A DNA stretch of 64,000 nt, from NCBI GenBank assembly GCA_028823995.1, contig JAPPFD010000002.1:53654-117653 (forward strand), given 5' to 3'. The notes beneath the pieces are model-generated. The model was not told the origin of the DNA, ran no database searches, and saw nothing but the letters and a program-made list of their open reading frames with translations. The position numbers and the translations under genes were made by a program. This document shows positions 23,144 through 42,086 of the stretch, piece by piece. Every line of letters starts with the position of its first letter. The first letter of the stretch is position 1. This DNA comes from a bacterium (GTDB lineage: Bacteria; Actinomycetota; Acidimicrobiia; Spongiisociales; ZC4RG35).

Positions 23144-26100
23144 CTATCCATCGGATCCTAGCAACTCGATCATCCCTTCAGGTAAACCAAAGCGTTCCGA
23201 TACCCTGACTTCCCTAAAACGGCTTGTCCTTCTTCCCAGGGATTCCTCAAGTAAGCTGACGTAGCGCCTTTGTGCACGATAGTCTCTTGCCGGCATCAAT
23301 GCCTTCAATGCTATCACAAACCCCGTTGCTTCATCACCCAGTAATCGATTGTTTTCCAATGTGTTAACTATTCTATTGAAGGCATCGCCGCGTGAACACC
23401 CGATATCTTGGGCAATGGATATCAGATCTTCCTTGCCGCCACCTAGCCAGACATTCTGTTGGCAGAGCTTGATCAACAGACCTGCTAGCTTTTCGTTCGG
23501 CTTGTCAAGCGCTTCGACTTTCTTGATCTCCAGTCCCAGATCGCCTAACTGCCCTCGTTCTGCTACTGCCCCCAGAACCGGCAACATCGCCGTGTCCCTA
23601 TTCAGAACATCGTAAGCTCTCCGCAAGACTTCAACACCATCGTCGACCAGTGACGAGTTACCAACGTGGCAGTCAAAGGAGGAGTGTCTTCTTCCCACGG
23701 TAAGAAATAGCTTTGCCCCAGCAGTTGGTGATTCACTGACCAAGTTAGCCAACACATGAAGGGGAACAGGCTGTCCCGCAGGAAGCACTCGATAAATCTC
23801 TTCTAATGTATCCACATCCGTCTGCCGTAAGGTAGGAAAGTCCTCTAAGCGTGCGGGGAAGGAGTAAAGGAACATTAACCAGTTGATAACTTCAGCAACG
23901 AACTGACGGGACCTACCGGAAGGCAAATTACTAAACAGTGGTATCACATCTTCTAAGGTTCTTCTATCCGCATCCATAATAAACATCGGATTAAAAACCT
24001 TCAACGGCGATAACGTTACTGGAAATCCAGTAGTCCCAATTCTCGCGTCGAACGGCAAACGCTGATCCGCCATTGAAAGCACATCTTCCCACACGATACC
24101 CTCATCGAACCAGCGAGTCTCGGCTGTGATCCAATCGTCTTGGTCGCCCAATCTCCCTTCTTTGGCTCCGTCTGCCAGCTCCAATAGCTTTTTCGCATCG
24201 GTACATGACTCCAGACACGCTACAATAGGCCACGGTAATGTTCGCCACACAGTCCTATTCGCTGCATGGTCCTCGTCAAAGGAGACCTTTGCAAAGGCCT
24301 TAAGTGTACTCGCTAACATATCTTTGGAAGGTGCCTCTAAGAATCTGCCAGCCCACTTATACGGTAGCCAACTGGGATGCCAGTCAGAAATCGCATTAAG
24401 CGTTTGCAAAACCGTCGCGCTACCAGGAGTCAACCGGTTAATTGGCCCGTAGGACAACATCGTATCTAAAACCGTGACTCTAGGGCCGCCGTGATGTCTA
24501 GGAGACTCCAGTATTGAAATCGCGGCTTTTAGGGTCGGGTCCACGTCCTGTCGCTCCAATAATGCCCTTCGTTTTTCTGACTGGAACACACCTACAAACG
24601 TACCAATGGGTGTCCTCGGAATTAGGCGCAGCACCTGCTCAGTTGCCCAACCGTTCTTAGTGTGGTCAGTGTCGGCTAACAGAATATCAACCTGGTCTTG
24701 GACGCCATTAGGCCAATAACTGTTTGCCATGTCGGTAGCCCAGTCGACGTCATTAGCGACAAGCGCAAGTAAACAATTCCAAGCTCCTAAGAACTTAACA
24801 TGGTCGCTACCTGTAAGTCGCAGCCCTAATTCGTCTCGGTAAATGGTCTCCATTTGAGAATCATACACATTAGCTAACTGTGCATGCAGACGGGGGTTGG
24901 CCTTATCCAGCGCTCTAATCGCCAGTCTCCCTAGCAGCGTTTTGTATTTCGGCTGCCGCCGTGCCGAACCCTCCTCTAGCAAGGCGATGGCCAGGTCCGC
25001 ACCCACTAAGTGCAAACCTTCCCCCTCGTTACCGTCTTCTTCATTCAAAGCGGCACAAGTTGAATGCACCAACTCGCGAAGCTCCTGCCGCTGAGCAAAA
25101 CATTTGCCCGCAGCAAACAAGAAAACGTTCCTCCAGAATGGGATGGGAGCTATTTCCTCTAATCGCGCCTGGATGTCGGGATAGGTGTCCTCCACTAAGC
25201 TCTCTGCCGCCATAAACTCTTGCAACGAGCGGATTTCAAATCCTATTCTCTCCGCTTCCATTTCGACCAAAAACACCAAACGCTCCGAGGCCGCTGCCAC
25301 GATCTGTTCGGCGATAGTGCGTCGATCCTCCTCCGGATGTTCCTCCGCCCTTAGCCGCGCTTCTACAAGAGACACAAATCGATGGCGATCCAACAAAGCG
25401 TCTGTTCTGCCTGTCCTTTCAGAGTCCACTTGAAGGATGAGGCCCACTTGGTTGTGGATAGTCCTAATGTCGGGTTCGTATTCACTCAATATCCTTGACG
25501 CAGAGATGTCCCTTTCCATTTCTCTGTCGTATATGACGTCGTAATATGAATTAAACAGATTCCAACGCGCTTGTGGAGGCTGCCCTAAACGATCTACCAA
25601 CGCAGTCATAATCGTTACCTGCAACGGTGTCCTCATCAAACGACTGGTTGATGGATCTCCAAAAGCCCGCCTTAACCGGCCTAACACCTTTTCTTTCCGA
25701 TCTTCGTCAGCACCATACCGGACTGCAGCGAGCCGCTGCGCATAATGCCAACCAAGTTGTTCCGACAACTCGGCCAGATGTTGGTGTTGGTAATACAGCG
25801 GTGAAAAGTCCTCATTGTAGCCTTGGGGGCGACTAGTCGCTATTGAGAGAATGTCCGCGTTAGCACTGCTGGCATCCACCCAGAACTCTCTAATGGCACG
25901 CAGAACTTCATCTCTGTTGCTTGAAGGTGGTACCTCATCTAATCCGTCAAAAATGAAGACACTTGGATAGACCGCGAGGAACTGACGTAGATCCGCCGGT
26001 GATACCTCGGCATCAGTGCGTCTCTTTATTTGTGATGACAAATAGCCAAGCACGGAGTATATTGGCGACTCCGAACTGGGAGCCAAAGCCTTGGCAAAAT

Positions 26101-27205
26101 CGTTTAATGTCAATTTAAAAGGAAAGCGAGGCACGACTTTATGCGAGATGTTTTCGCTTTCGCAATGGTGCTGAATCGTTCCTAAGGCACCCTTTGTGGG
26201 CGGAGACCATGTATGCTCAGGTTTTCTCGCGATGACCGCAGCACGGAAGATTTGGCAAATGAACTGCGTCAACGTAGTCTTTCCCTGACCTGGACCTCCG
26301 ATCAATACAAACCGCCCGCGGGATGCTCCAGCTAAACCTGCCTCAATGCGGTCTGGCACTGGAGAGGCACCCACAGAAGCAGGATCAAGACGTTCGGAAG
26401 ATGCGGCCAATACGTTTCTGATGAATCCTTCCTTAAGCTGAGGCCGGCCGACATCATTAAGATCCTCAAGGGCCTCGCCCAGCATATGTGACCTAATCAT
26501 ATTGGGCTCATGTTGAATAGGCAGGTCAACAAACACCGTGGCTAGAGGTATAGGTTCGTTTACAGTGTGACCAGCTTGCTCCAGATTGACGTACTCATCG
26601 CTTAGCAATTCCTTTTCCAAAAACCGCGTCATGGTAGTATGCATGTCAACCGATGCCGGTTTTAGTGTCGCAAAGGCGGCCGCGAGCACATCGCCTGGCG
26701 TTATGAAAGTGGAATAGGTGGTCCTAACTTCAGGATAAATGTCAAGGAATATGCGAATCTGGTCATAGTCCCATATGGCGTAGTCCTTGAGATGTGATTG
26801 CGATTTGAATTCCTTTAGAACGGCAAATGCCTTGTCTTTGGAACCTTTATCCTTTACTGGTGTTAGAACCACATTCGTAGCGTAAATGAAGAAATCAGGT
26901 GACCGTATGTTGGTGTCTGGGTCGGTATACTTTTGTAACTCGTCCCTTAGTTGCTCTACTGCCCATAGCCCGTCTTCATAGACATTGCCGGAACGCTGCC
27001 GGAATTTTGCCTGTACAACGCCATAACCATCCCAGCCATCTAAATGCGTGGGGTAAGGTACCTTCCGTTCGAAAGTCGCCTCTCGCCCACCGTCGGGGCC
27101 ATCCCCAAACACCACAATCCCAGGGCCCAAAACCTTAGCTGCTAACGCTTGAATCAACTGCTCAAACGAGCGGGGAGATAAAGTTGAAAGGTTGTAGTCA
27201 GCCAT
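23144..27205 (-). CDS. Bacterial NLR-like (bNACHT / Avs-like) STAND NTPase with an N-terminal Mrr-type restriction-endonuclease domain and a long C-terminal helical sensor-like region (1353 aa). Putative antiviral defence protein.
   Basis: Residues 1-70 match the Mrr_cat pattern (SFEQLIQAL...GDGPDGGRE...GVVQAKF). NACHT-type NTPase: Walker A at about aa 300-312 (FVLIGGPGQGKTT), Walker B (VFIFDGLDE) and the NACHT-specific TSR motif (ILSIATSRPQGY). About 750 C-terminal residues are helical-repeat-like. The gene is about 50% GC against a host background near 68%. Confidence 0.75.
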   Translation of the reverse strand: MADYNLSTLSPRSFEQLIQALAAKVLGPGIVVFGDGPDGGREATFERKVPYPTHLDGWDGYGVVQAKFRQRSGNVYEDGLWAVEQLRDELQKYTDPDTNIRSPDFFIYATNVVLTPVKDKGSKDKAFAVLKEFKSQSHLKDYAIWDYDQIRIFLDIYPEVRTTYSTFITPGDVLAAAFATLKPASVDMHTTMTRFLEKELLSDEYVNLEQAGHTVNEPIPLATVFVDLPIQHEPNMIRSHMLGEALEDLNDVGRPQLKEGFIRNVLAASSERLDPASVGASPVPDRIEAGLAGASRGRFVLIGGPGQGKTTLTQFICQIFRAAVIARKPEHTWSPPTKGALGTIQHHCESENISHKVVPRFPFKLTLNDFAKALAPSSESPIYSVLGYLSSQIKRRTDAEVSPADLRQFLAVYPSVFIFDGLDEVPPSSNRDEVLRAIREFWVDASSANADILSIATSRPQGYNEDFSPLYYQHQHLAELSEQLGWHYAQRLAAVRYGADEDRKEKVLGRLRRAFGDPSTSRLMRTPLQVTIMTALVDRLGQPPQARWNLFNSYYDVIYDREMERDISASRILSEYEPDIRTIHNQVGLILQVDSERTGRTDALLDRHRFVSLVEARLRAEEHPEEDRRTIAEQIVAAASERLVFLVEMEAERIGFEIRSLQEFMAAESLVEDTYPDIQARLEEIAPIPFWRNVFLFAAGKCFAQRQELRELVHSTCAALNEEDGNEGEGLHLVGADLAIALLEEGSARRQPKYKTLLGRLAIRALDKANPRLHAQLANVYDSQMETIYRDELGLRLTGSDHVKFLGAWNCLLALVANDVDWATDMANSYWPNGVQDQVDILLADTDHTKNGWATEQVLRLIPRTPIGTFVGVFQSEKRRALLERQDVDPTLKAAISILESPRHHGGPRVTVLDTMLSYGPINRLTPGSATVLQTLNAISDWHPSWLPYKWAGRFLEAPSKDMLASTLKAFAKVSFDEDHAANRTVWRTLPWPIVACLESCTDAKKLLELADGAKEGRLGDQDDWITAETRWFDEGIVWEDVLSMADQRLPFDARIGTTGFPVTLSPLKVFNPMFIMDADRRTLEDVIPLFSNLPSGRSRQFVAEVINWLMFLYSFPARLEDFPTLRQTDVDTLEEIYRVLPAGQPVPLHVLANLVSESPTAGAKLFLTVGRRHSSFDCHVGNSSLVDDGVEVLRRAYDVLNRDTAMLPVLGAVAERGQLGDLGLEIKKVEALDKPNEKLAGLLIKLCQQNVWLGGGKEDLISIAQDIGCSRGDAFNRIVNTLENNRLLGDEATGFVIALKALMPARDYRAQRRYVSLLEESLGRRTSRFREVRVSERFGLPEGMIELLGSDG

Positions 27206-28074: not shown

Positions 28075-29187
28075 GTGCTGTTTTATAGTATGTTGTCTGA
28101 CTGGGTGGCTTCGATGGAGATGCTTGTGGTGTTCCAGAGAGAGTGTCAGCGAATCTTTGCAGAGTTATCGGAGTGGAATGACGGCCATCCAGAGTGGCAG
28201 AAGATGTTTGGTGGATGGTTGGGGTTGATGTTTACAGCGGTGGTTTTGGCTGGGTCGGGATGGGCAGATCCGGTCCGGCTAGAGGAATTCCTGCGCCTTA
28301 TTGTGACTCCGCTAGCCGTTTTCTGGGGCTTTGGGGAGTATGGCAGAAGATGGCAGTCTGACGACCATCCCGGCGAGGTGGGGCCTTCTTCCGCTGAGGG
28401 TCGAGAAATCGATTGGCGGCGGACATTAGTAGGAGTGACCCACTTGGCAGGAATAGTTGCCGTCCTCGCCATCCTGATTCTTGTGGTTTTCGTTGATGGG
28501 CCTTCGGAACTGTGGACTGCGTTTGCCCCTGGAGTTCTCATTTTTGTGTGTCTAGCGATTACCAACGCTGTCGCTCGTGCAGTGGGCAGCAGGCCGGCCC
28601 GTTTCTCTGTTGCGCACACCGTGCCTGACGTCGGGAGGGGCCGAGTGCTGGCAGCCACGTTGATAGACAGTGTTATGGCGTGCGTATTTTCGCTTTTCCT
28701 GCTGATGATGCTCCTGGCGGCTTTGGCAGTAGAGGACCAGGTGGGTTCCGACATGCTGCCCTTTACAAACAAGGACTTGGGAAATTCCTTCGATGGCATC
28801 TGGATACCGTTGATGGTGTTCTTGGCAGTCTTCTTGGTGTACCGGTGGGTCGCCCTTCGGAGATGGGGATGTGGACTGGGTGGGCTTTCGATGCGATTGC
28901 AACTCCGTGACCACGGGGGCGAGAGGCCAGGACGGTTCAGGCTTCTCCTAAGGTGCGCATTCGATACTGTATGTATGGGTATGGCTGTGGCCGCGGTTGC
29001 GTTCCTCCCGGCCGATCGGGGGGTCCCGGCGATGGGCGCGGTTGTAGTGATCGCTGTTTGCGTTGGTACCAATGAAGGCAGAAGCCTGACCCATGTACTG
29101 TCGGGCACACAGTACGAACTGCGACAACGCGGTGGACCCAGCCAAAGATCGAACCCAAATGGCGGGATAGACCCACTTGAAACCTAG
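28075..29187 (+). CDS. Hypothetical polytopic membrane protein with an RDD-family-like C-terminal region
   Basis: At least 6 hydrophobic helices. The C-terminal segment resembles RDD-domain proteins (RWGCGLGGLSMRLQLRDHGG..RLLLRCAFD). Start uncertain. GC about 54%. Confidence 0.45.
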   Translation: MLFYSMLSDWVASMEMLVVFQRECQRIFAELSEWNDGHPEWQKMFGGWLGLMFTAVVLAGSGWADPVRLEEFLRLIVTPLAVFWGFGEYGRRWQSDDHPGEVGPSSAEGREIDWRRTLVGVTHLAGIVAVLAILILVVFVDGPSELWTAFAPGVLIFVCLAITNAVARAVGSRPARFSVAHTVPDVGRGRVLAATLIDSVMACVFSLFLLMMLLAALAVEDQVGSDMLPFTNKDLGNSFDGIWIPLMVFLAVFLVYRWVALRRWGCGLGGLSMRLQLRDHGGERPGRFRLLLRCAFDTVCMGMAVAAVAFLPADRGVPAMGAVVVIAVCVGTNEGRSLTHVLSGTQYELRQRGGPSQRSNPNGGIDPLET

Positions 29188-29541
29188 TAGCAGGGTGGTT
29201 CAAACCAACACCTGTTCCCCTATGCCAAAGCAGGTCCCCTGTCGGATCCTGTCCAGCAGGGGTGCCACAGGACAAACGGGGAGCCCTCAGCAGTTGGACG
29301 CCGATAATCATGGTCCTAGCGGCAATAACAGCGGGCGTGCTCATCGGCGGGTACCCAGGAGCCGGGCCCGGGTATAGGCGTATCCGCCATAGCACTGCAC
29401 ACCTGGCGAGCAGGATCCAAACGGAACTAATCCACTGTGTCGGGTGCAAGTTATCCCAAAAAGAGCTGACGCCTCTTGGCCACCGGACCTGGGAAGTGCC
29501 AGATAGGGGCCCTCGGGGATGCGGAACCGAAGTCGGATCGG

Positions 29542-30759
29542 CTAGGCGGCGGGGTCGACCAGGCGTCCTATGAATAAGAAGGCGCCGGTTTCGGGGTGAA
29601 CGATGGCCCAGAGGAAGGGGCGGTCGGCGACCACCGTGAGGTCCGGTGGTGGTGGTGCTGACTCCTTGAAGGCCATGGCGGTGGCTGCAGCGGCTTCGGT
29701 GCCTTTCTCGTCGACGATCACCTTGGCGCCGTGGAGGGCGGCGGTGATGAAGATGCCCGGGGCGATGTCATCGAAAGGCGCTCCGGCGCAGAACCCCCGG
29801 GGGCAGAGCCACTCGAACAGGTCGGTGGGCGGCAGGGTTTGTTCCCACTTGGGCATGGTTAGATCGACAAAGCCCTGTTGGGCAATGTCCTCAAGGCCGG
29901 TCAGGTCCTGTGAGTCGAGCAATTCCTCGACCGCTGGAAGTCCTCCTGGGTCGTGGGGCACGATCAGCCACATGGCCAACCGGCCCCCCTGGTATGGGAG
30001 TTGTACCGCGTCGGCGCCGTCGAGTCGGACGAAGCGACGAGCGACCGGCTCCCGGTCGCGCATGAACGGTACCGTCACCGCGAGGCCGTCTCCGGTGGTG
30101 AACGGGCCATCTTCGGTCCACTCGGGGAGGAACGGCTCTGCCCAGTCGGCCTTCAGGTACACCGTGTTCACCAGGACCAGTTCCTGGCTTTGGACGGTCT
30201 GTTCGGTGACGATGGTGGGAACCAGACCGCGGGTGGTGTCCGATACCCATCCGTTGATGGTCTCGGCCGCCGACGCGCCGTCGTCGAGGTCGATCGGGTG
30301 GACCGCCGCTCCGTAGTGGGCGCCGGCAATCTCCAAGAAACCGGGCAGTGGAGAGAACTCGTCGTCGGGGAAGAGACGGTTGGCCACCTCCAGGGTGGTC
30401 GGTTCCACCGAGGCGGTGGCCAGCATCAGATCGACCGCATTGGCCGCAGGGTGAAGATCAAGCTCGGGGAACCCGAAGATCTCATCGAGCACCGCCCCGG
30501 TGTCTCCGGATGCGCCGGCCCGGCTGAGGCTGAAAGCCAAACCGAGGCTGACCGGACTGGAGACCGCGTTGCCCACCAGGTGGCGATGAAAGTCCCAGCC
30601 GGCCGCGTTGGCTCCGGCCACCCAATCCGCCGTCGGCGCCAGGGGATCGGCTGGCAGCCGGTCGGCCACCGGCTCCAACAACGTCGTGGTGGTGACCGAG
30701 GGACCGCATGCCGCGGTCAAGAAACACAGGAGAACGAGAAACCTGAGCAATTTTGTCAT
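29542..30759 (-). CDS. Serpin-family protease inhibitor, lipoprotein (bacterial serpin)
   Basis: ATG at 30759 (MTKLLRFLVLLCFLTAACG is a signal peptide plus lipobox). Serpin hinge GTEAAAAT, then the reactive-centre loop. C-terminal serpin signature (VADRPFLWAIVHPETGAFLFIGRLVDP). About 405 aa. Confidence 0.8.
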   Translation of the reverse strand: MTKLLRFLVLLCFLTAACGPSVTTTTLLEPVADRLPADPLAPTADWVAGANAAGWDFHRHLVGNAVSSPVSLGLAFSLSRAGASGDTGAVLDEIFGFPELDLHPAANAVDLMLATASVEPTTLEVANRLFPDDEFSPLPGFLEIAGAHYGAAVHPIDLDDGASAAETINGWVSDTTRGLVPTIVTEQTVQSQELVLVNTVYLKADWAEPFLPEWTEDGPFTTGDGLAVTVPFMRDREPVARRFVRLDGADAVQLPYQGGRLAMWLIVPHDPGGLPAVEELLDSQDLTGLEDIAQQGFVDLTMPKWEQTLPPTDLFEWLCPRGFCAGAPFDDIAPGIFITAALHGAKVIVDEKGTEAAAATAMAFKESAPPPPDLTVVADRPFLWAIVHPETGAFLFIGRLVDPAA

Positions 30760-31034
30760 AGCTTGTTCGATCGTAAGAAGAGCCTCAGAGAACCTCGTTG
30801 TCAACTCTAGAACGCGGCCTAGCAGATGTGCGGAGACCACATGGTCGGCTATTCGAAGGGACGCCGGGGCCAATCGAGGAGGACGGCCCACTTATCATCC
30901 TCGACCAATGGCCTCTTTGATTGACCACTTCTCTCCTCCAAAGCGCCCCTCAACGCGACTCGGGGAGGCGAAGTGTCACACCCCCTTCCCATGCTTGCTG
31001 CAAGCAGCATTCCAGCAGGGAGGAGGCCTACATC

Positions 31035-31784
31035 TTGAGTAACCGATCTGGGATCGAGTGGACTGAGACGACGTGGAACCCGACGACTGGTTGCGACCAG
31101 GTGTCCATGGGGTGTGACAACTGCTACGCGCTGACTTTCGCGAAGCGTCTCAAGGCCATGGGCCAACCCAAGTATCAGAACGACGGTGATCCTCGCACCA
31201 GCGGTCCCGGATTTGGACTCACCCTACACCCGGATGTCTTGGCCGAGCCAAGGCGATGGAGGGCGCCTAGGTTGGTGTTTGTGAACTCAATGAGCGACTT
31301 GTTTCATCCCGAAGTCCCTCTCGAGTTCATCCAAGAGGTGTTTAGTGTGATGGCCGAAACGCCACAGCACACCTACCAGATCCTTACCAAGCGTTCCAAG
31401 CGACTTGCATCTCTCGGGCCCCAGCTGGACTGGTCCCGAAATGTTTGGATAGGTGTCAGCGTTGAAACCAGTCGCTATGTCTTCCGCATCGACCACCTCA
31501 GAACCGTTCCTGCCGAAGTCCGCTTCATCAGTGCGGAACCTCTACTGGGTCCTCTTCCCAATCTGGATCTCTCGGGCATCCACTGGCTGATCGCAGGGGG
31601 AGAGAGCGGCCCCGGGGCAAGACCCATCGAAGAAGCATGGGTCCTCGACTTGCGGGATCAGTGTGCAGCCGCCGACGTAGCCTTCTTCTTCAAGCAGTGG
31701 GGAGGCCTCCACTCAAAATCCGGTGGCCGGGAACTTGATGGTGCTCTATATGACAATTTGCCATCACTCAGCAAGGCAAGCTAG
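31035..31784 (+). CDS. Phage Gp37/Gp68-family protein (DUF5131) with an N-terminal three-Cys motif
   Basis: TTG start at 31035 preceded by ggaggagg. N-terminal IEWTETTWNPTTGCDQVSMGCDNCYA matches the family hallmark (C-x6-C-x2-C). About 250 aa. Confidence 0.7.
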   Translation: MSNRSGIEWTETTWNPTTGCDQVSMGCDNCYALTFAKRLKAMGQPKYQNDGDPRTSGPGFGLTLHPDVLAEPRRWRAPRLVFVNSMSDLFHPEVPLEFIQEVFSVMAETPQHTYQILTKRSKRLASLGPQLDWSRNVWIGVSVETSRYVFRIDHLRTVPAEVRFISAEPLLGPLPNLDLSGIHWLIAGGESGPGARPIEEAWVLDLRDQCAAADVAFFFKQWGGLHSKSGGRELDGALYDNLPSLSKAS

Positions 31785-31798
31785 GCCGGGCCAACATT

Positions 31799-32785
31799 GT
31801 GCGGGTATGGGGATGCTGGACCAAAGGCAAGTTGGACATTCTGCGGCGGTATCTGGATGCCTTCACCACAACGACCAAGCACAAGTCAGATGAAAGGATT
31901 TATATTGATGCTTTCGCTGGTGAGCAGGAAAACCGACTTCGTCTGACAGATGAGCCTCTGGAAGGTTCGGCAAGAATTGCGTTATCAATTGAAGATCCAC
32001 CCTTCACCCGATTGCGTTTCTTTGAAACCGAAGCCAACGCATCCGCGCTTGAGTCATCGTTGAGGCGCGACTACCCAAACCGTGATCTGGAAGTGTTAGG
32101 TGGGGATTGTAATGAACTCATCCCCAGGGAACTTGCTCGGTTGCGGCGGCTCAATCGAGTTCCGACGTTCGCCTTTATTGACCCTAACGGTATGGAGGCG
32201 GAGTGGCGAACGTTAAAGGCATTGGCGCATTTCAAAGAGGGACACCGGTGGAAAGCCGAGATTCTCTACTACTTTGCACCGCCGATGTTTACGCGAGTAT
32301 TGCCGGTTGATGGCCAACCGGTCAGCAAGAAAAACGCTGCGAGAATTGATCGTCTCTACGGTACGAAGGACTGGCGTTTCATTTACGAGGCCCGCCTACG
32401 TTGTGCCTTAGAGCCTTGGCAAGCCCGACAAGAGTACCTCAATCTGATGAGATGGCGCATGGAAGAATCCTTAGGATATGAATGGACACTCCCGATTGAA
32501 GTTCGAAATGAGCGGGGCGTCGTCATCTATTACATGATCTTTGCCACTGATCACGAAGCGGGTGAACGCATAATGGGGAGCGTTTACGCTAAAGCTGCCG
32601 AAGAGTTTCCGATAATGCGCGAGAAGGCGCGAAGGATTCGCAAACAGGAAGAAAACAAAGAACGCGGCGTAACAAGCCTTTTCGGTGAGGACGATGGAGA
32701 ACTCTGGGGCCCAATTCTGCCAGGAGAACGGTTTTACGAACACGAGCCACCTACCAGGCCATGGTTCCTGCGCGAGTGCCCTTGA
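31799..32785 (+). CDS. Three-Cys-motif partner protein TcmP-like, with Rossmann/methyltransferase-like motifs
   Basis: Immediately downstream of the DUF5131 gene. N-terminal WTKGKLDILRRYLDAFTTT resembles the TcmP family start. IYIDAFAGEQ and FAFIDPNG resemble MTase motifs I and IV (weak). GTG start. About 48-50% GC. Confidence 0.55.
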   Translation: MRVWGCWTKGKLDILRRYLDAFTTTTKHKSDERIYIDAFAGEQENRLRLTDEPLEGSARIALSIEDPPFTRLRFFETEANASALESSLRRDYPNRDLEVLGGDCNELIPRELARLRRLNRVPTFAFIDPNGMEAEWRTLKALAHFKEGHRWKAEILYYFAPPMFTRVLPVDGQPVSKKNAARIDRLYGTKDWRFIYEARLRCALEPWQARQEYLNLMRWRMEESLGYEWTLPIEVRNERGVVIYYMIFATDHEAGERIMGSVYAKAAEEFPIMREKARRIRKQEENKERGVTSLFGEDDGELWGPILPGERFYEHEPPTRPWFLRECP

Positions 32786-32972
32786 ACTCGATGGAAGTGT
32801 CACTGGCCTGCGAGCATCACAGCACTGCTGGCAAGAACGATTTAGCCAACCCCCGTTGTTTCATCACCCGGTGCTACAACTAAGCGATAGATCGAGAGGG
32901 TGCCCCAGCAACACTTCCGCGTCGGACTTCCCGACCTCGATCGCCAACCCACATGGGCATCGGAAGGTCAGA

Positions 32973-33827
32973 TCAGTTCTGGTCCCCACCCACAAAGGAA
33001 GAAAGCACCTCCGGTATCGCCTCCCATGCAACCGAGCGGGTGAGACGATTCAGTGTTCCCACCCCCACACTCTTCTGTCCACCAAGTTCCTCATCGAGCA
33101 CTGAGGTTGGGACCACCCAAAATACCCAGCACAGTGGATCCTGAACATCCTTATTGGTTGCGGGTACGGTGTCATGAAGGCAGAACACATAAATGTCAGC
33201 CAGACGCCGGGGCGGATCGAAGGTTTGCCACTGGTCTGTGTCGGGATCCCATGCCATCTTCCTAGGCCTAATGTCGAATCTCGGTGTCGACATCTGTTCG
33301 AGGTTCCACGTCTGGCTGATTCCCGAGGCCTTGACTTCGATGGTGAGGTTGCGGTAGCGGAGATCATACGAGTTCCACTCGGTTCGATGGTCGGCGTCAT
33401 CAATGATGCCGAGTGCTTGACCGACCAGCCACTCGGCATATAAGCCTCTGTTGACGTTGTCAACAAGATTCCCGACGGCCCAACGGTTGAAGCTCCCGGG
33501 TGGAGGGCTGGGGGGAGGCTTAAGCCAAACAATGGGAATGTCAGGAGCAGCAGGCGACAACAAATCCATCGCGTGGTACATCTCATCCTGGTAGTAGAGC
33601 CACCAGCGCCCCATGGGCCCTCCTGCCCAGCTGTCAAACCCCAGTTCTATCCCGTTGCCAAGCTTGATAAGCGCTATGGCTTCGAATTCCCACCATTCGT
33701 TGTACCGGGGGCCGGCAAACAGTTGGGGGCCAAAGGCCAGGTAGGAATGCTCTCGCTCGATCAGCCGATATACAGCTACCGATCCTTTGGTGATCCTGTC
33801 GGGTTCTCCGTTGCGTTCTCTGTTCAT
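32973..33827 (-). CDS. Hypothetical protein with a C-terminal PD-(D/E)xK-nuclease-like signature
   Basis: The E...D...E-x-K arrangement (YAEWLVGQALG ... YDLRYRNLTIEVKASG ... DIYVFCLH) is typical of the restriction-endonuclease fold. Second gene of an operon with the HNH-DUF433 gene (ATGA overlap). Confidence 0.45.
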   Translation of the reverse strand: MNRERNGEPDRITKGSVAVYRLIEREHSYLAFGPQLFAGPRYNEWWEFEAIALIKLGNGIELGFDSWAGGPMGRWWLYYQDEMYHAMDLLSPAAPDIPIVWLKPPPSPPPGSFNRWAVGNLVDNVNRGLYAEWLVGQALGIIDDADHRTEWNSYDLRYRNLTIEVKASGISQTWNLEQMSTPRFDIRPRKMAWDPDTDQWQTFDPPRRLADIYVFCLHDTVPATNKDVQDPLCWVFWVVPTSVLDEELGGQKSVGVGTLNRLTRSVAWEAIPEVLSSFVGGDQN

Positions 33828-34384
33828 AGAGTCTTGGCCCTAACGGTTCGCAGAAGCTCGATCTGACGGTCGATGATCCGCTCGGCATCCGACATCTCGA
33901 TGCCCTCGTAGCAATCCAGGAACTGGTCGAGGGTTATGCCTTCGTTGAGCTCCTCGAATAGCTCGGCAATAGGCAACCAAGTACCGGCAAATACCCACTC
34001 ACCGCTAAGACGGTCCGTACGTCTCTCAACAGCTCCGCATGTTTCCCAGATCGACTGGCGTTGTTCTGAGGACTTGCCGAATTGCCTCACTACAAGGGGT
34101 GGCTGCCACCCGCAACCGCAATTCCGCTCGGCCGCGAGGCGACGCTCTGGTGATCGGTAGTCAATGGGTTGATCGGTTTTCCGTCGATTGCAAGTTTGGC
34201 AGAGGGTTTGGAGGTTGTTCCAACAGTCTGGCCCGTCAGCGGCTTGCGGGACTATGTGGTCGATCTCAAGATCCTGGGAGCTTCCGCAAGAAAGGCATTG
34301 ATCCCCATCGAGACTGAACACCCGTTCGCGACGTCCCTTCTTTTTACTCATACGTGGGAATCTTAACGAGCGGGTGTGACGCAT
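33824..34384 (-). CDS. HNH endonuclease fused to a C-terminal DUF433 domain
   Basis: HNH motif CLSCGSSQDLEIDHIVPQAADGPDCWNNLQTLCQTCNRRK. C-terminal GTWLPIAELFEELNEGITLDQFLDCYEGIEMSDAERIID matches DUF433. The likelier start is ATG at 34351 (MSKKKGRR). Confidence 0.7.
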   Translation of the reverse strand: MRHTRSLRFPRMSKKKGRRERVFSLDGDQCLSCGSSQDLEIDHIVPQAADGPDCWNNLQTLCQTCNRRKTDQPIDYRSPERRLAAERNCGCGWQPPLVVRQFGKSSEQRQSIWETCGAVERRTDRLSGEWVFAGTWLPIAELFEELNEGITLDQFLDCYEGIEMSDAERIIDRQIELLRTVRAKTL

Positions 34385-34574
34385 TCCCCTCGGGTTCGTG
34401 CCGAAGCAGGGGAAAGCGGCAACACCCGCGCCGGTTACCGCCTCGAAACTGCTAACAGCAACACCAGAACGGCCGCGCCATGACCCACCATGCCGGCTTC
34501 ATCCGCCGGAGATACTGACCGGGTAGGCAACCGAGGCCCGTGCAACGCCGATTTCTCTCTCCTCCTAGGGTCTC

Positions 34575-34600
34575 GGGATTTGTCATAATATAATGATCTT
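34575..34600. promoter_or_regulatory. AT-rich near-palindrome (tgtcataatataatgatc) just upstream of the GntR gene; candidate operator or -10 region
   Basis: Seen in sequence about 5-25 nt upstream of the gntR-family start. 12 of 14 positions of tcataatataatga are dyad-symmetric. Coordinates are approximate, because text and ORF track disagreed by 1 nt here. Confidence 0.3.
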
Positions 34601-34602
34601 CC

Positions 34603-35352
34603 ATGAGCGGCGGCTTGGACAGACACCTTCAACGTGGCCCTCTCCCACTGTGGTTCCAGATCAAGGAACAACTCAGACGGGCCATCGATATGGGCGAGTG
34701 GGCGCCGGGCGAACAGTTGCCAACCGAGAGCGAACTCACCGAGTTCTTCGGTGTCAGCCGGATCACGGTCCGTACTGCTTTCGAGCGGCTGGGCGACCAG
34801 GGTCTGGTTGAACGGACTCCCGGGCGGGGCACCTTCGTGGCCCAACGCAGTTTCGAACAGCCGGTCACTCGTCTGGCCGGATTCCACGAGGACATGGCTA
34901 GCCGTGGCTTCGTCCCCTCCGCTCACACCCTCTCAGTCGGAGTCGTTCCCGGACCCTCCGATGCGGCGTCGGCACTGGGTGCCGAGGGCGAGGACCTGGT
35001 GGAGGTCCGGCGTCTCCTCTCAGCCGACAACACGCCCATGGCTTTCCAACACGGCTATCTGCCTACCTGGGTGTTGGGAAACGGCGAGTTCACCACCGCC
35101 GACCTTCACAACAAGTCGCTTTATCGGATCATGGAGGAACGGACCGCGTCGCATCCGGCGACCGCCGAAGGGACCATCGAAGCGGTCCGGGCTGACCGCA
35201 CCCGAGCCGACCTGCTGGACGTGCCGGAGGGATCGCCCCTCCTCCTCGCCACCCGCTTGTCTCTCGATAGGTCCCGACGCCCGGTCGAGTGGGTGCGGCT
35301 TTGGTACCGGGCGGACCGCTACCGCTTCCGGGTGGAGTTGCAACTCCCATGA
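34603..35352 (+). CDS. GntR-family transcriptional regulator (HutC subfamily, UTRA effector domain)
   Basis: N-terminal winged HTH (LPTESELTEFFGVSRITVRTAFERLGDQGLVERTPGRGTFV) and a C-terminal UTRA-like domain. 249 aa. Confidence 0.8.
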   Translation: MSGGLDRHLQRGPLPLWFQIKEQLRRAIDMGEWAPGEQLPTESELTEFFGVSRITVRTAFERLGDQGLVERTPGRGTFVAQRSFEQPVTRLAGFHEDMASRGFVPSAHTLSVGVVPGPSDAASALGAEGEDLVEVRRLLSADNTPMAFQHGYLPTWVLGNGEFTTADLHNKSLYRIMEERTASHPATAEGTIEAVRADRTRADLLDVPEGSPLLLATRLSLDRSRRPVEWVRLWYRADRYRFRVELQLP

Positions 35353-36251
35353 TCGACGTGGTGGGTGACGCCTGTGTCGACCTGGTCCTTCCAGTTTCCC
35401 GGGTCCCGGACCCGGATGAGAAGGTGCACACCGGGGAGGCGGTGGTGAGCCCCGGCGGGGTGGCGCTGAACGTGGCCGTCGCCCTGGCTCGGCTGGGTTC
35501 GGAGGTGGCCCTCCATGCCCGGGTCGGCCAGGACGCCTTCGGTTCCATGGTGCTGGAGACACTCGAGGAGGAAGCGGTGAACACCACCAGCGTGGTGACG
35601 GACCCTTCCATCGACACCTATTTCACCATGTCGCTGATCACCGACGACTCTCCGGAAAAGCGCATGGTCGTGGCGGTCACGCCCGGTCTGTACCCCGCCG
35701 AGGCCACATTAGGACCCTCGACGTGGGGTCATACGGCGCCCTTCGATCTGGATGCCGCCGCGAAGGTCACCGACCGGTGGCGCACTCTCGGCGTCCCGTT
35801 CTCGATAGATCTGGAGCCGGCCTGCATACCCGAAGATCCGGCCGAGATCGCCTCGGTGACCACCGGCGCCGACACCCTGATCGCCAATGCCCGGACCCGG
35901 GATCTCCTTGCGGAGTCAGCCGAGGGCGCGCTCGATGTCCTGTCGGGGCCGCTCGGCGGTCGCCACGCAGTGATCACCGGCGGATCCGACGGGATCGTCT
36001 TCCGCTCGGAGGGGACCACTGGTCGGATCCCCGCCCACCGGGTGGATGCGGTCGACACTACCGGGGCCGGCGACGGCTTCGCGGCCGGATACATCTGGGC
36101 TCGCACCCGGGGTTCTGAGGTCGTCGAAGCGCTAAGAGTCGGAGTCCTGGTGGGAGCGCTGGCCTGCCGGAGCCTGGGAGCGCTGGCATCGTTTCCGCGA
36201 AGAGAGGAGATCGATCCATGGCTCAGGACCCAACGGGAGGACAGCTCATGA
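35349..36251 (+). CDS. PfkB-family carbohydrate kinase (ribokinase-like)
   Basis: ATGA overlap with gntR. PfkB signatures (GGVALNVAVALARLG and the C-terminal DTTGAGDGFAAG anion-hole motif). Confidence 0.75.
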   Translation: MIDVVGDACVDLVLPVSRVPDPDEKVHTGEAVVSPGGVALNVAVALARLGSEVALHARVGQDAFGSMVLETLEEEAVNTTSVVTDPSIDTYFTMSLITDDSPEKRMVVAVTPGLYPAEATLGPSTWGHTAPFDLDAAAKVTDRWRTLGVPFSIDLEPACIPEDPAEIASVTTGADTLIANARTRDLLAESAEGALDVLSGPLGGRHAVITGGSDGIVFRSEGTTGRIPAHRVDAVDTTGAGDGFAAGYIWARTRGSEVVEALRVGVLVGALACRSLGALASFPRREEIDPWLRTQREDSS

Positions 36252-37090
36252 GCCTGCTGCCCAAGAAGCCGGATCCTTTGGCGGCTACATTCGATCAACC
36301 CAAGCCGATCATCGGCGTCATACATCTCCCTCCCCTTCCCGGGGCGCCCCGGTACGACGGCCAACCGGTGGAGGAGATCTACGCGGCGGGAGTGGCGGAC
36401 GCGGTGGCCATGTCGGAAGCGGGGATCGATGGGATCATCGTCGAGAACGCCTTCGACCTTCCCTTCTCCCGGCCCGAGGCGATCGGCGCCGAGACGGTGG
36501 CTGCCTTGACCGCGGCCGGTCTGCGGGTCCGCGACGCGGTGGATCTCCCGATCGGGATCACCTGCGTCGCCAACGGGGTGATACCCGCCCTGGCCATCGC
36601 CAAGGCGGTGGGCGCCCGGTTCGTGCGAGCCAACCAGTGGGCCAACGCCTATGTGGCCAACGAGGGGATCATCAACGGCCCAGCCGGCGAGGCCCTTCGC
36701 TACCGGTCGGCGATCGGAGCCCGGGAGGTACAGATCTATGCCGACGTCCACGTCAAGTTCGGCGCCCATGCCATCACCGCGGACCGCTCGGTGACAGAGC
36801 AGGCCCGCGACGCCGAGTTCTTCGACGCGGACGTGCTGATCGGGAGCGGACAGCGCACCGGGTCTCCCACCGAGGCGGGCGAGATCCGCGCCATCCAAGC
36901 CGGCACCTCGCTTCCGGTGCTGGTGGGAAGCGGCATGGACGTGGACAACGCGGCGGAACTGCTGTCTGTGGCGGACGGCGCGATCGTGGGGAGCTCAATC
37001 AAATACGGAGGCACCTGGTGGAATCCGGTCGACCCCTCCATCGCCAGAAGGCTGATGAAGGTCGTGCGGAGCGTAAGAAACGGAAAATGA
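36248..37090 (+). CDS. BtpA/SgcQ-family TIM-barrel protein
   Basis: ATGA overlap with the kinase gene. BtpA-like motifs (IIGVIHLPPLPGAP, IIVENAFDLPF, VLVGSGMD). Confidence 0.65.
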   Translation: MSLLPKKPDPLAATFDQPKPIIGVIHLPPLPGAPRYDGQPVEEIYAAGVADAVAMSEAGIDGIIVENAFDLPFSRPEAIGAETVAALTAAGLRVRDAVDLPIGITCVANGVIPALAIAKAVGARFVRANQWANAYVANEGIINGPAGEALRYRSAIGAREVQIYADVHVKFGAHAITADRSVTEQARDAEFFDADVLIGSGQRTGSPTEAGEIRAIQAGTSLPVLVGSGMDVDNAAELLSVADGAIVGSSIKYGGTWWNPVDPSIARRLMKVVRSVRNGK

Positions 37091-37112
37091 AAGCAACATC
37101 TAGGAGGACAAA

Positions 37113-38681
37113 GTGAAGCATCACCTGCGGTTGTGGACCGCACTGTTTGCCATCCTGGCTCTGGTGGCCGCATCCTGTGGCGACGCCGAAGACGAGGCCG
37201 AGGTCGCCGAGCCGACCACCACGGCGGCGGCTCCCGAGCCGGAGCCGGAACCCGAGATGGCCGATCCCGGCACCCCCGGGAACATCCCCGACCCGGGCAC
37301 CGCGGCCGGACGCTTCGACGGAGTCGAGGTCGTGGTGGCAGGCCCGGCAGGCCAGCTCGAATACATGAAGGACAAGGCAGCCGAATGGGCGACCGAGACC
37401 GGCGCCACCGTCCGGGTCGACGAGATTCCCTTCGGAGAACTCAACGACAAGGTCCTGGCGGCGCTCTCCACCGACACCTTCATCGCCGACGTGATCAACA
37501 TCGGTTCGAACCTGGGTGGCGACCTGATGGGCGGCGGATTCATGGCCGCCGCGCCCGAGTGGGCCCAACAGCGGGCCGATTGGGAAGGCATCCTTCCGAT
37601 CTTCCGTTCGAACCAGTTGTCGTTCGGCGGGGTTGCCTACGGAATGCCCTGGGACGGCGACGTCCTGATGTACTACTGGCGCGCCGACGCCTTCGAGGCC
37701 AACGCCGACGCCTACGAGGCGGCCACCGGCAACGCCCTCCGTCCGGCCGAGTCGTGGAGCGAGTACGCAGAAATCGCCAAGTTCTTCACCGAGAACGACT
37801 GGTCCGGCCAGGACGAGGGTTACGGCCTGGTGGAGTTGCCGATGCGCAACAACCAGGGTTGGAACGGCTTCATGACCCGCGCCGCGGGATACGCCAAGGC
37901 GCCCAACGACCCCGGCTTCTTCTTCGATCCCGAGACCATGGAGCCCCGGATCAACAATCCGGGCTTCGTGCGGGCTCTCGAGGACTGGGGAGCCGTGATC
38001 GAGTACGGTCCCCCGGGAATGCTCAACTTCGGTTGGATCGAGAACGCCCTCAGCTTCGTGGGCGGCCTGGCGGCACAGGACATCCAGTGGGGAGACATCG
38101 GCCCGATGTCCAAGTCTCCCGACTCGGTCGTCGAGGGAGCGGTCGGATACGGCCCCGCCCCCGGCGCGGATGAGTACTGGGACCCGGTTGCCGAAGAGTG
38201 GGCTTCCGGTGACGGACCCAACAAGGCGCCGTTCCTAGGCTTTGGTGGATGGTTCAACCTGGTTCCCGCCACATCCAACCACCTGGCGGCCGCCTTTGAC
38301 CTGGCCTCCTTCCTGGGCAGCCCGGCTGTCCTGGCCGAGGCGGCTGTGACCGCCGGAACCGGCGTCAACCCCGGGACCGCCGCCACGCTCGATGTGGACC
38401 TGTGGGTGAGTGCGGGATGGCCCGAGGACGAGGCGAAGGCCTACACCGACGCCATCCGGGCGTCGCTCGATCACCCCAATGCGGTGTTCGACATGCGCCT
38501 GCCCGGCTTCCCCGAATACAAGGACGCATTGGAACTGGCAGTGTCTGAGGCTCTGTCCGGTCAGCACAGCGCCCAAGAGGCACTGGATGAGGCCGCGGAC
38601 AAGTGGAATGAGATCACCGACCGTCTGGGTCGTGACGAACAACTCCGCATTTACCGCGAGGCCCTGGGGCTTACCGGCTGA
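37113..38681 (+). CDS. Sugar ABC transporter substrate-binding lipoprotein (family-1 extracellular solute-binding protein)
   Basis: Signal peptide plus lipobox (LALVAASCG), a Pro/Glu/Thr-rich linker and an SBP fold. 522 aa. Confidence 0.75.
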   Translation: MKHHLRLWTALFAILALVAASCGDAEDEAEVAEPTTTAAAPEPEPEPEMADPGTPGNIPDPGTAAGRFDGVEVVVAGPAGQLEYMKDKAAEWATETGATVRVDEIPFGELNDKVLAALSTDTFIADVINIGSNLGGDLMGGGFMAAAPEWAQQRADWEGILPIFRSNQLSFGGVAYGMPWDGDVLMYYWRADAFEANADAYEAATGNALRPAESWSEYAEIAKFFTENDWSGQDEGYGLVELPMRNNQGWNGFMTRAAGYAKAPNDPGFFFDPETMEPRINNPGFVRALEDWGAVIEYGPPGMLNFGWIENALSFVGGLAAQDIQWGDIGPMSKSPDSVVEGAVGYGPAPGADEYWDPVAEEWASGDGPNKAPFLGFGGWFNLVPATSNHLAAAFDLASFLGSPAVLAEAAVTAGTGVNPGTAATLDVDLWVSAGWPEDEAKAYTDAIRASLDHPNAVFDMRLPGFPEYKDALELAVSEALSGQHSAQEALDEAADKWNEITDRLGRDEQLRIYREALGLTG

Positions 38682-38776
38682 CATCTAAAGCAGCGCGCGC
38701 ACCGGTCCGTCCCGGCAGGTCGCTGGGACGGACCGGGCTTGCGCCGCGCTGGTTCATCTCGCCCGCCACCACCGCG

Positions 38777-39601
38777 GTGCTGGCCCTCAGCATTTTTCCG
38801 CTGGTTTTCTCGCTGGGCCTCACCTTCACCAACGTCAATCTCTTCCGGCGGGTGCCGCTTCGCTTCGTCGGCCTGGAGAACTGGGCGCGCATCTTCTCGG
38901 ACGAGGCTCTCCTGGAGACGCTGGTCAACACCGTCATCTTCGTGGGCGGCGGCGTGGCGATCCAGTACTCGTTGGGCCTGGCGCTGGCGGTGGCGCTCAA
39001 CCGGGGCCTTCGGGAACAGCGCCTGATGCGCGTCCTGTTCCTGCTCCCGATGATGGTGAGCCCCATCGCGGTGGGCTTCATCATCGGGCGGATGGTGTTC
39101 AGCGAGGGCTTCGGGCCGATCAACGACATGCTTGGGGCCCTGGGCCTTCCGGCCGTGGCCTGGGTCACCTCGCCGGGCGTGGCCAAGTTGACCATCATCC
39201 TGGTGGACACCTGGCAGTGGACGCCCCTGATGATGCTGTTGATCCTGGTCGGTCTGCAGGGCATACCCGGTGAGCCGATCCAGGCGGCCCGGGTGGACGG
39301 CGCCTCGGAGTGGCAGATCTTCCGCCACATCGTCTTCCCACTCCTGCTGCCGGTCAGCATCACCGCCATCCTGATCCGCGCCCTGGAGGCGTTCAAGATC
39401 ATCGACATCATCCGGGTGGTGACCGGCGGCGGCCCGGGACGCGCCACCGAGTCGGTGACCGCGTATGTCTACAACGTCGGCGCCAAGCAGGGTGACCTGG
39501 CGTACGCGGCGTCGGCAGCCTATGTCCTGCTGTTCGTGGTCATCGGGGTCAGCTTCCTTGCGCTGTATGTCATGCGCCGGGTGCAGGCGAGGTACGAATG
39601 A
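38777..39601 (+). CDS. Sugar ABC transporter permease (MalF/UgpA-type). The N-terminus probably extends upstream of the annotated GTG.
   Basis: EAA loop and 6 TM helices. The in-frame upstream translation (...LGRTGLAPRWFISPATTAV) looks like the canonical N-terminal cytoplasmic and TM1 region. It has no ATG/GTG/TTG back to the SBP stop; a CTG sits at about 38678. Confidence 0.7.
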   Translation: MLALSIFPLVFSLGLTFTNVNLFRRVPLRFVGLENWARIFSDEALLETLVNTVIFVGGGVAIQYSLGLALAVALNRGLREQRLMRVLFLLPMMVSPIAVGFIIGRMVFSEGFGPINDMLGALGLPAVAWVTSPGVAKLTIILVDTWQWTPLMMLLILVGLQGIPGEPIQAARVDGASEWQIFRHIVFPLLLPVSITAILIRALEAFKIIDIIRVVTGGGPGRATESVTAYVYNVGAKQGDLAYAASAAYVLLFVVIGVSFLALYVMRRVQARYE

Positions 39602-40434
39602 AGGGTCGACTGATCACCCGTGCGTTCCTGGTGGCGGCGGCCTTCGTCACCCTCTTTCCCATCTACTGGATCGTGATCACCTCCTTCAAAACCCAACTCG
39701 ACATCGTGGTGAACCCCACCTACCTGCCTTGGGTCGACTTCATGCCCACCCTGGAGGGCTGGCGGTGGTTGCTGACCGAGGCGCGGGGGGACGTGATCCG
39801 AGCCATCACCAACAGCTTGATCGTGTCGGGGGGCAGTGCGGTGATCGCCACCATGCTGGGCGCCGCGGCGGGGTACGGCCTCACCCGCTTTCAGTACCGC
39901 TGGCGGTTCTGGCGCAACGAGGACATCGCCTTCTGGTTCATCTCCCAGCGGATGCTTCCGCCCGTCGCCATCGTGCTGGCCTTCCTTCTGATGTTCCGAT
40001 GGCTCAGCCTGCTGGACACCCAGGTGGGCCTGACCATCGCCTACACCGGGTTCGCCATCCCCTTCACCGTGTGGATCATGCGCGACGCCTTCGCGCAGGT
40101 GCCGTTGGAGTTGGAGGAGAGCGCGGGGGTGGACGGCGCATCGGCCGCCGGCATCTTCTTTCGCATCTCCCTCCCGCTAGCGCTCCCGGGGGTGGTCGGG
40201 TCGATGCTGTTCGCCTTCGTCTTCGCCTGGAACGAGTACCTCTTCGCACTGATGCTCACCTTCCAGGAAGCCACCACGGTGCCCCTGCTCCTGGCGTCGC
40301 GCATCACCTCGTTCGGGACGCATTGGGACCAGCTGTCCGCGCTCACTCTCACCAACTTGATTCCGGCCGCGATTCTGGGGATCATGCTGGAGAGGTTTTT
40401 AATCAGGAACAGAACGGAAGGATCCCTCAAATGA
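39598..40434 (+). CDS. Sugar ABC transporter permease (MalG/UgpE-type)
   Basis: ATGA overlap with the upstream permease. EAA loop (ESAGVDGASAAGIFFRISLP). Confidence 0.75.
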   Translation: MKGRLITRAFLVAAAFVTLFPIYWIVITSFKTQLDIVVNPTYLPWVDFMPTLEGWRWLLTEARGDVIRAITNSLIVSGGSAVIATMLGAAAGYGLTRFQYRWRFWRNEDIAFWFISQRMLPPVAIVLAFLLMFRWLSLLDTQVGLTIAYTGFAIPFTVWIMRDAFAQVPLELEESAGVDGASAAGIFFRISLPLALPGVVGSMLFAFVFAWNEYLFALMLTFQEATTVPLLLASRITSFGTHWDQLSALTLTNLIPAAILGIMLERFLIRNRTEGSLK

Positions 40435-41464: not shown

Positions 41465-41794
41465 TTAGCCCGTTTGTGCAGCAGGAACCTTGGCAAGCCG
41501 CTCGGAAATGCGGTCCTGGGTGGTCTCAAGATCGTATTGGCTCTGCAATCCCATCCAGAACCCCGGAGAATTACCGAAGAAGCGAGCCAGCAGCAAAGCG
41601 GTCTCGGCTGTAATGGCCCGGTCACCATGGACGATGGAGTGAATCCGCCTGGCGTCCACTCCGATAGCTTTGGCCAGCCGGTACTGAGTGATTTTCATGG
41701 GAACGAGGAACTCCTCGTTCAGGATTTCACCCGGGTGGATCGGGGGTAGTTTCGACTCGGTGGTCATCTGGGCCTCGACTTCAGTGGTAGTCAA
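41465..41794 (-). CDS. higA: HigA-family antitoxin (XRE-type HTH)
   Basis: PIHPGEILNEEFLVPMKITQYRLAKAIGVDARRIHSIVHGDRAITAETALLLARFFGNSPGFWMGLQSQYDL is a near-textbook HigA sequence. Start may be the second ATG (41767). Confidence 0.75.
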   Translation of the reverse strand: MTTTEVEAQMTTESKLPPIHPGEILNEEFLVPMKITQYRLAKAIGVDARRIHSIVHGDRAITAETALLLARFFGNSPGFWMGLQSQYDLETTQDRISERLAKVPAAQTG

Positions 41795-42086
41795 CTATCT
41801 CGACTTGGTAGGCGTTGCCGTCGCTCCATAGGAAGCAGATCCGCCATTGATCGTTGATGCGGATGCTGTGCTGTCCGGCACGATCTCCCGACAGAGCTTT
41901 CAGCCGGTTCCCCGGCGGAATCCGAAGGTCCTCGAGATTCATGGCATTGTTCAGGATCATCAGTTTTCTCTGTGCTCGCCTCTGGATGTCCTCAGGCAGT
42001 TTCCGGACGCGACGACGCTCGGCGACCGCCTGGGTGTCTCTGTTCCGGTAGCTCCGGATCACAGCACTCGAATAATAGCGCGCCAC
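41781..42086 (-). CDS. higB: HigB-family toxin (RelE/ParE superfamily; plasmid-maintenance-system killer protein)
   Basis: VIRSYRNRDTQAVAERRRVRKLPEDIQRRAQRKLMILNNAMNLEDLRIPPGNRLKALSGDRAGQHSIRINDQWRICFLW matches HigB. Sits upstream of higA in the same orientation. Alternative GTG start at 42062 gives the canonical 94 aa. Confidence 0.7.
   Translation of the reverse strand: MARYYSSAVIRSYRNRDTQAVAERRRVRKLPEDIQRRAQRKLMILNNAMNLEDLRIPPGNRLKALSGDRAGQHSIRINDQWRICFLWSDGNAYQVEIVDYH

Follow-up and report, generated by a model that had tools for sequence, protein, structure and literature searches.

Members of the BisI family (NhoI and Eco15I; PDB 8q5n and 8q5m) are modification-dependent, Type IV-like restriction endonucleases with a QxK catalytic motif (NhoI having QVK and Eco15I QIK), and cleavage by these enzymes needs 5-methylcytosine within GCNGC together with an (H/R)(V/I/T/M) methyl-binding motif (PMC11347163). 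The DUF433 domain (COG2442) is known as the predicted DNA-binding antitoxin of PIN toxins and is described as having no other conserved neighbour (PMC2701414). We analysed a two-gene locus which shows similarities to both of these groups, as well as to HNH restriction enzymes of the McrA type and to PD-(D/E)xK homing endonucleases. The locus lies in a stretch of 64,000 nucleotides from a bacterium of the Acidimicrobiia (contig JAPPFD010000002.1), which is referred to as the window. All three recognisable domains encoded by the two genes fall in known superfamilies, and the gene pair matches none of the described systems that were tested, namely the PIN-DUF433 toxin-antitoxin pairs, the BisI family proper, intron-encoded homing endonucleases and the systems in PADLOC. 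What is new is the fusion of an HNH nuclease to DUF433, a widespread, solitary and unannotated PD-(D/E)xK family, and an orphan domain under strong constraint that in every case follows, and is coupled to, a nuclease gene.

Gene A (33824..34384, minus strand) is an open reading frame of 186 aa encoding the HNH-DUF433 fusion nuclease, which was recognised by its Pfam matches. Gene B (32973..33827, minus strand) encodes a mosaic protein of 284 aa that consists of the orphan N-terminal domain (B_N), a Pro-rich linker and a PD-(D/E)xK domain (B_C). The start codon of B lies over the stop codon of A in the tetranucleotide ATGA (33824..33827, minus strand), as read off the sequence, and this overlap of 4 nt is also kept in four related loci (L001, L002, L086 and L087), giving five lineages including the window. 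The coordinates, the strand and the overlap of the two coupled reading frames are therefore as given in the preliminary description. The gene layout suggests that A and B form an operon, and the intergenic region upstream of A (34385..34602), between A and a divergent gene for a GntR/UTRA regulator, is presumed to hold its promoter. Simple scans for a promoter or terminator of the pair gave none, and a sigma-70-type consensus was not present in 34385..34602. The low-GC, defence-like setting that had been noted before was also recovered: the GC content is 0.49-0.57 over the region from about 23 to 34.5 kb of the window, compared to 0.65-0.69 in the flanks, and a DUF5131/TcmP gene pair (30921-32785) that is convergent with B matches the PADLOC candidate PDC-M41. 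The window contains no tRNA and no member of any Rfam family (group I and group II introns among them), and the flanking repeats found were nothing above chance-level 14-23-mers; with no consensus promoter or terminator either, borders of a mobile element could not be defined. DNA homology between the loci that carry A ends within about 20 nt of the start of A.

The fusion of HNH and DUF433 in gene A, claimed in the preliminary description, is upheld by both Pfam profiles, each of which scores above its gathering threshold. The HNH profile PF01844 matches aa 30-72 (34169..34297, minus strand) with an E-value of 7.6e-13 and 48.8 bits against a threshold of 21.4, and the same region is also above threshold for PF14279 and PF13395. 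This beta-beta-alpha-Me domain has the arrangement CxxC...DH...N...CxxCN, and its motif CLSCG...DHIVPQ...NNLQTLCQTCNRRK, which is conserved in the family, contains two CxxC zinc pairs as well as the DH...N...N pattern of catalytic residues. The HNH core aligns to the HNH domains of Cas9, IscB and ZRANB3. The DUF433 profile PF04255 matches aa 121-170 (33875..34024, minus strand) with a score of 26.8 bits (gathering score 23.6) over positions 3-52 of the 56 in the profile, and corresponds to a three-helix domain of the DNA-binding type; DUF433 was recorded for 10 of the 18 clusters of A homologues. The two domains are joined by an Arg/Cys-rich linker (aa 73-120; 34025..34168, minus strand) with the pattern YRSPERRL..C.C.W..P.V.R.FG, which is conserved in the A family and has R77, S78, P79, R81, R82, A85, C89, W93 and R100 as invariant columns; its predicted structure has a pLDDT of about 30. 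The structure model of A as a whole is poor (pLDDT 59), and nothing could be recovered from it beyond the HNH core plus a generic bundle of three helices. Translation of A may in fact begin at M12 (34351), which is where most homologues start.

The combination of HNH and DUF433 is unusual, since DUF433 has been described as an antitoxin of PIN toxins that lacks any other conserved neighbour. Gene A shares with the VapBC-like type II PIN-DUF433 pairs a bona fide DUF433 domain, here at its C-terminus, and the coupled two-gene arrangement, but its DUF433 is fused to HNH, the partner is a PD-(D/E)xK protein instead of a PIN protein, and the pair is not obligate. The protein resembles McrA, TagI, VcaM4I and the HNH endonucleases of phages in having an HNH nuclease of the beta-beta-alpha-Me, Cys4-Zn type together with an accessory nucleic-acid-binding domain. 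It differs from the McrA/TagI/VcaM4I type in that the accessory domain is a C-terminal DUF433 attached via the Arg/Cys-rich linker and not an SRA, EVE or winged helix domain. A comparison with PADLOC-DB v2 gave no system match for A, only generic matches to HNH domains (PtuB, Cas9, DpdF and PDC-M01B; best E-value 7e-6). The A family is tiny, with 18 clusters among 5.8 billion proteins, all of them from sponge-associated metagenomes or MAGs. If the assignment is correct, this family would reuse, for DNA binding by an HNH nuclease, a domain that until now has been known solely as an antitoxin associated with PIN.

For gene B, a PD-(D/E)xK-like protein with an unassigned N-terminal domain had been suggested, and this assignment stands. 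The B_C domain (aa 113-284; 32976..33491, minus strand) is predicted to have the alpha-beta-beta-beta-alpha-beta core fold of the PD-(D/E)xK superfamily. The predicted catalytic residues, all on the minus strand, are E132 (33432-33434), D155 (33363-33365), E164 (33336-33338) and K166 (33330-33332), and they are conserved in 118, 116, 118 and 117 of the 118 homologues, respectively. In the structure model of B, D155 directly precedes the strand 156-158 and the ExK motif lies within the strand 161-169. Because B_C folds as a nuclease and its ExK residues are conserved, the alternative that B belongs to a non-nuclease family fails. The best matches of B_C are restriction and homing enzymes (PvuII/BisI/I-Ssp6803I-like) and not resolvases; a Foldseek search of the whole B model against PDB gave no significant match. 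Searches of B against Pfam, NCBIfam, PADLOC and PHROG found no match, with no PIN match at E<=1, and scanning B_N and B_C separately, as well as 32 family members, against the same four collections gave no family.

The closest comparison for B_C is with the BisI family. Like the BisI-type enzymes, the relatives of B_C are small (about 150-180 aa), stand-alone PD-(D/E)xK proteins without a cognate methyltransferase, and in this last respect the family also differs from PvuII, a Type IIP enzyme that has one. When the profile of the B family is aligned to Eco15I, the match spans the catalytic helix (G.[FY]AEWLV..ALG) as well as the strands with D...x[VI]K; it has an E-value of 0.08 and 19-20% identity, which is not significant. 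Differences from the BisI family are that the B family has an invariant E164-V-K166 (ExK) and not QxK, that it was not possible to locate the (H/R)(V/I/T/M) methyl-binding motif in B_C, and that B has an extra orphan N-terminal domain and is coupled to an HNH gene. In the HMM alignment the first 'AD' of Eco15I is opposite W151-D152, and the protein of the window has N at position 152. D155 is tentatively favoured over D152 as the catalytic Asp, as it is far better conserved and lies at the start of strand 2. Full-length B proteins form three clusters among the 129 homologues (P0001-P0003), to which the B genes of L086 and L087 can be added. The other homologues are nearly all 165-230 aa long (most about 170-190 aa) and match only aa ~113-284. 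A further locus (L007) was considered as a long form of B in another lineage and rejected, as its upstream extension has neither a start codon nor real similarity to B_N.

The co-occurrence of A and B across genomes, proposed as a check in the preliminary description, largely fails. The neighbours of B were surveyed in the best 80 of the 344 loci that encode B relatives. A was found upstream in two of these 80, both with full-length B (L001 and L002), and the other 78 were without A. Clustering of the neighbours found no partner in more than 9 of the best 80 B_C loci, and an N6 methyltransferase accounted for one of 143 immediate neighbours. This survey indicates that the B_C family, whose members are mostly proteins of about 175 aa, is solitary and without a cognate methylase. 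Other immediate neighbours were genes for DUF5131/PDC-M41B, DUF4268/PDC-S11, GIY-YIG/PD-T4-3, PIN and HTH proteins and integrases.

The loci related to the window show the modules in several combinations. The window, L001, L002 (= L092/L093), L086 and L087 have A followed by long B, the two genes sharing the 4-nt overlap; in these five lineages the long, B_N-bearing B is always downstream of A. Five loci (L081-L085) have an intact A without a trace of B, three (L094-L096) have a decayed A without B, and on the contig with P0132 and P0009 both genes are decayed. In P0006 (L097), A is fused to B_C by a clean deletion of 293 bp which takes out exactly B_N and joins A to DIPIVWL. An assembly chimera is unlikely for P0006, which is 86% identical to its nearest relative and carries a single clean, frame-restoring deletion. 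P0004, which is 72% identical to B, is at the same hotspot without A, and its DNA (L098/L099) is 96% identical to L087 from about codon 83 of B onwards and unrelated upstream of this point. All breakpoints are at 'PAAPDIPIVWL', the boundary of B_N and the linker; the junction and Pro-rich linker (SPAAPDIPIVWLKPPPSPPPGS) cover aa 91-112 (33492..33557, minus strand). The flanks of the hotspot are conserved (Cupin_2/peptidase S15 or GntR/PfkB), and TacA, PemK, Fic and HTH_3 cassettes occupy the same site in related loci. A and B_C are thus each viable alone, and the site is a recombination hotspot where the modules are shuffled.

As the best explanation, which we hold tentatively, we propose that two autonomous DNA endonucleases make up a lineage-specific cassette here, located in a recombination-prone hotspot of sponge-associated Acidimicrobiia that is rich in defence and toxin-antitoxin genes. 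The A-B pair would most likely serve as a restriction-like defence against foreign DNA rather than as a toxin-antitoxin system. This view draws on the domain identities, the solitary nature of the B_C family, its defence-type and mobile neighbours, the low-GC island with its PDC-M41 pair, the conserved overlap, the selection on the three modules, the natural fusion in P0006, the coupling of B_N to RNase H in L088 and, as a hint of dependence, the higher dN/dS of A in loci that lack B (0.23-0.90). DUF433 would then be no antitoxin but the part of the HNH nuclease that binds DNA, and B_C may cut double-stranded DNA as a PvuII- or BisI-like dimer. To be tolerated in the absence of a cognate methylase, B_C would have to be modification-dependent (Type IV-like) or gated in another way. 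Any contact between the two proteins is conjectural, and since at least five loci have an intact A but no B, and B_C mostly occurs by itself, their pairing could also be incidental to the shuffling of cassettes. On the present evidence the A-B pair reveals no new principle of immunity. If B_C is what it appears to be, an unannotated PD-(D/E)xK family with hundreds of loci would represent candidate methylase-independent restriction enzymes. In practice, defence islands of uncultured symbionts would be better annotated, and new small nucleases that are sequence- or modification-specific might become available.

A combination of HNH and helix-turn-helix domains is a typical homing-endonuclease layout. 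Gene A, with HNH and a putative DNA-binding domain, would have a layout of this type, and the two genes could be selfish, with cuts made by A driving gene conversion and cassette turnover and with B_C as a free-standing relative of I-Ssp6803I. The match of B_C to I-Ssp6803I, the sharp end of DNA homology at the coding region of A, the unrelated flanks on the downstream side and the recent cassette replacement in which 96% identity resumes at a domain boundary are all in line with this, and so is the state of the A family itself, as 7 of its 18 clusters appear truncated or frameshifted and one contig has a second, decayed copy. I-Ssp6803I (PDB 2ost) is encoded in an intron, however, whereas B is free-standing, the window is without a group I or group II intron or any other Rfam family, and there is no intein context. 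Among 2.9 million viral contigs A was not found and B_C was present in only three loci. Furthermore, related genomes have A at the same two positions in the chromosome; its DNA identity is about 77-81% compared to about 83-85% for the flanking core genes, and these shared positions and the core-like divergence fit vertical descent of A. Both genes are also under purifying selection: where B is present, dN/dS is 0.18-0.39 for A, 0.25-0.53 for B_C and 0.07-0.17 for B_N, so that B_N, at about 0.1, is the most constrained of the three modules. Selfish homing is therefore considered unlikely.

The preliminary description had suggested a toxin-antitoxin-like or abortive-infection module in which DUF433 binds the partner; one of the nucleases would be the toxin and DUF433 would neutralise it. 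DUF433/COG2442 is indeed a predicted antitoxin family (PMC2701414), A and B are translationally coupled, and other toxin-antitoxin cassettes (TacA, PemK and HTH_3) are found in the hotspot. In addition, A is often decayed where B is missing and seems less constrained there, with a dN/dS of 0.23-0.90 that is higher than in the presence of B, although the sample is small; this is a hint of functional dependence. The gene arrangements argue against such a module, because either protein can do without its partner: L081-L085 have an intact A and no B, 78 of the best 80 loci hold a solitary B_C homologue, and the 72%-identical P0004 lacks A. There is no PIN partner either, as the only gene coupled to A is B with its PD-(D/E)xK fold, DUF433 is joined to a nuclease here and is not a free protein of 70-80 aa, and P0006 is a single polypeptide, which is unusual for a toxin-antitoxin pair. 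We therefore regard a toxin-antitoxin or abortive-infection function as improbable.

The B_C family comprises 344 loci in a survey of one genome each of 185,579 species. It is concentrated in sponge-associated Acidimicrobiia, reaches Acidobacteriota, Bacteroidota and Firmicutes, and has several paralogues in some genomes, such as OZ242375.1 and NZ_OZ240249.1. That A and B are nucleases with a housekeeping role in DNA repair or recombination (structure-specific and Hjc-, RecU- or Vsr-like) which merely lie in a variable region is again very unlikely. Conservation within the B_C family is good (45-60% identity among Acidimicrobiia, about 40% between phyla) and it has no conserved partner genes, but its distribution is patchy, several paralogues are present in some genomes, its neighbourhoods are variable and often of a defence or mobile type, with an island low in GC in the window, and its best matches are to restriction and homing enzymes instead of resolvases.

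The third module, B_N (aa 1 to about 90; 33558..33827, minus strand), is an orphan domain without a family match. An exhaustive phmmer search of 1.84 billion representatives found only two clusters at 50% identity and gave no hits beyond the B_N family itself and a stand-alone protein of 103 aa (P0139), and a search of PDB sequences with the B_N profile returned only noise. An over-extended gene call, with a true gene of about 175 aa inside the 284-aa reading frame, was rejected on the basis of the dN/dS of B_N (0.07-0.17 across five lineages). B_N may be a coupling or regulatory module that ties B to the nuclease encoded just upstream; with a pLDDT below 50 and no predicted structure for the domain, we infer this role purely from gene order. 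If it holds, B_N would stand out as a tightly constrained orphan that in all cases shows translational coupling to a nuclease gene located upstream. A bolder proposal, possible but doubtful, sees in B_N a new domain that serves as adaptor or sensor and physically joins a PvuII/BisI-like endonuclease to the upstream nuclease in a two-nuclease defence complex, with B_C as an unrecognised methylase-less, Type IV-like family that has expanded in sponge symbionts. In the locus of the stand-alone protein (L088), the upstream nuclease is not HNH-DUF433 as in the window but RNase H, and the gene for P0139 is coupled to the RNase H gene by the same ATGA overlap. Downstream of P0139, past a gap, a protein with a NucS-like nuclease motif is encoded, and P0139 itself terminates at ...QIVWL.

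The locus L087, in which gene A (the HNH-DUF433 fusion) is followed by the long form of gene B, was compared with the loci L098 and L099. From codon ~83 of gene B and downstream (position 3405 onward of L087), the DNA is 96% identical, whereas upstream of this codon L098 and L099 are wholly unlike L087 and carry an opposite-strand RNase H/RVT_3 gene in place of gene A and B_N, the orphan N-terminal domain of B. This identity downstream and its absence upstream are sequence evidence of a very recent cassette exchange at this hotspot. An RNase H gene is also found in L088 (4543-7120), where a stand-alone B_N gene is ATGA-coupled to it. The B_N gene is followed, after a gap of 358 bp, by a gene whose 335-aa product has a NucS-like PD-(D/E)xK region at its N-terminus (sub-threshold match to NF003270, E 1.9e-6), and then by a second RNase H copy, near-identical to the first. 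This arrangement looks like a cassette insertion accompanied by an RNase H gene duplication.

The dN/dS of gene A is 0.18-0.39 in the five loci with gene B (the window, L001, L002, L086, and L087) and 0.23-0.90 in those with an intact gene A but no B (L081-L085), a small sample in which some dS values are low. With the same small sample and low dS values in mind, constraint on gene A may have been relaxed after loss of B.

Window positions 29470-39803 are 89.5% identical over 10.4 kb to L001, an Acidimicrobiia MAG chromosome (OZ242375.1). The identical protein, P0001 among the full-length B homologue clusters, nevertheless has the NCBI label Caldilineaceae (Chloroflexota), probably reflecting a binning or label conflict. 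Positions 41485-41880 show 83-84% identity to the HTH_3 gene directly after gene A in L082 and L083, and thus a cassette that adjoins gene A elsewhere stands ~7 kb off in the window. The region of ~41-57 kb has a GC content of ~0.60, also below that of the flanks.

Beside gene B, and convergent with it, lie a DUF5131 (Gp37/Gp68-like) gene (30921-31784, forward strand; PADLOC candidate PDC-M41B, E 1e-108) and then a three-Cys-motif partner TcmP gene (31799-32785, forward; PDC-M41A of the same PADLOC candidate pair, E 1e-28). DUF5131 directly adjoins solitary homologues of the B C-terminal domain at 4 of 78 loci (among the best 80 of 344). The lowest-GC part of the island (GC 0.49-0.52) holds a 1353-aa ORF (23144-27205, reverse strand), which may encode a STAND-like defence ATPase; its P-loop/NACHT-type Walker-A matches (~aa 296-323) are all sub-threshold, and PHROG and NCBIfam scans returned no family. 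Also within the island are genes for an RDD-family membrane protein (28075-29187, forward) and a bacterial serpin (29542-30891, reverse; PF00079, E 1.6e-66). In L083 and L002, too, the serpin occurs in the vicinity of gene A.
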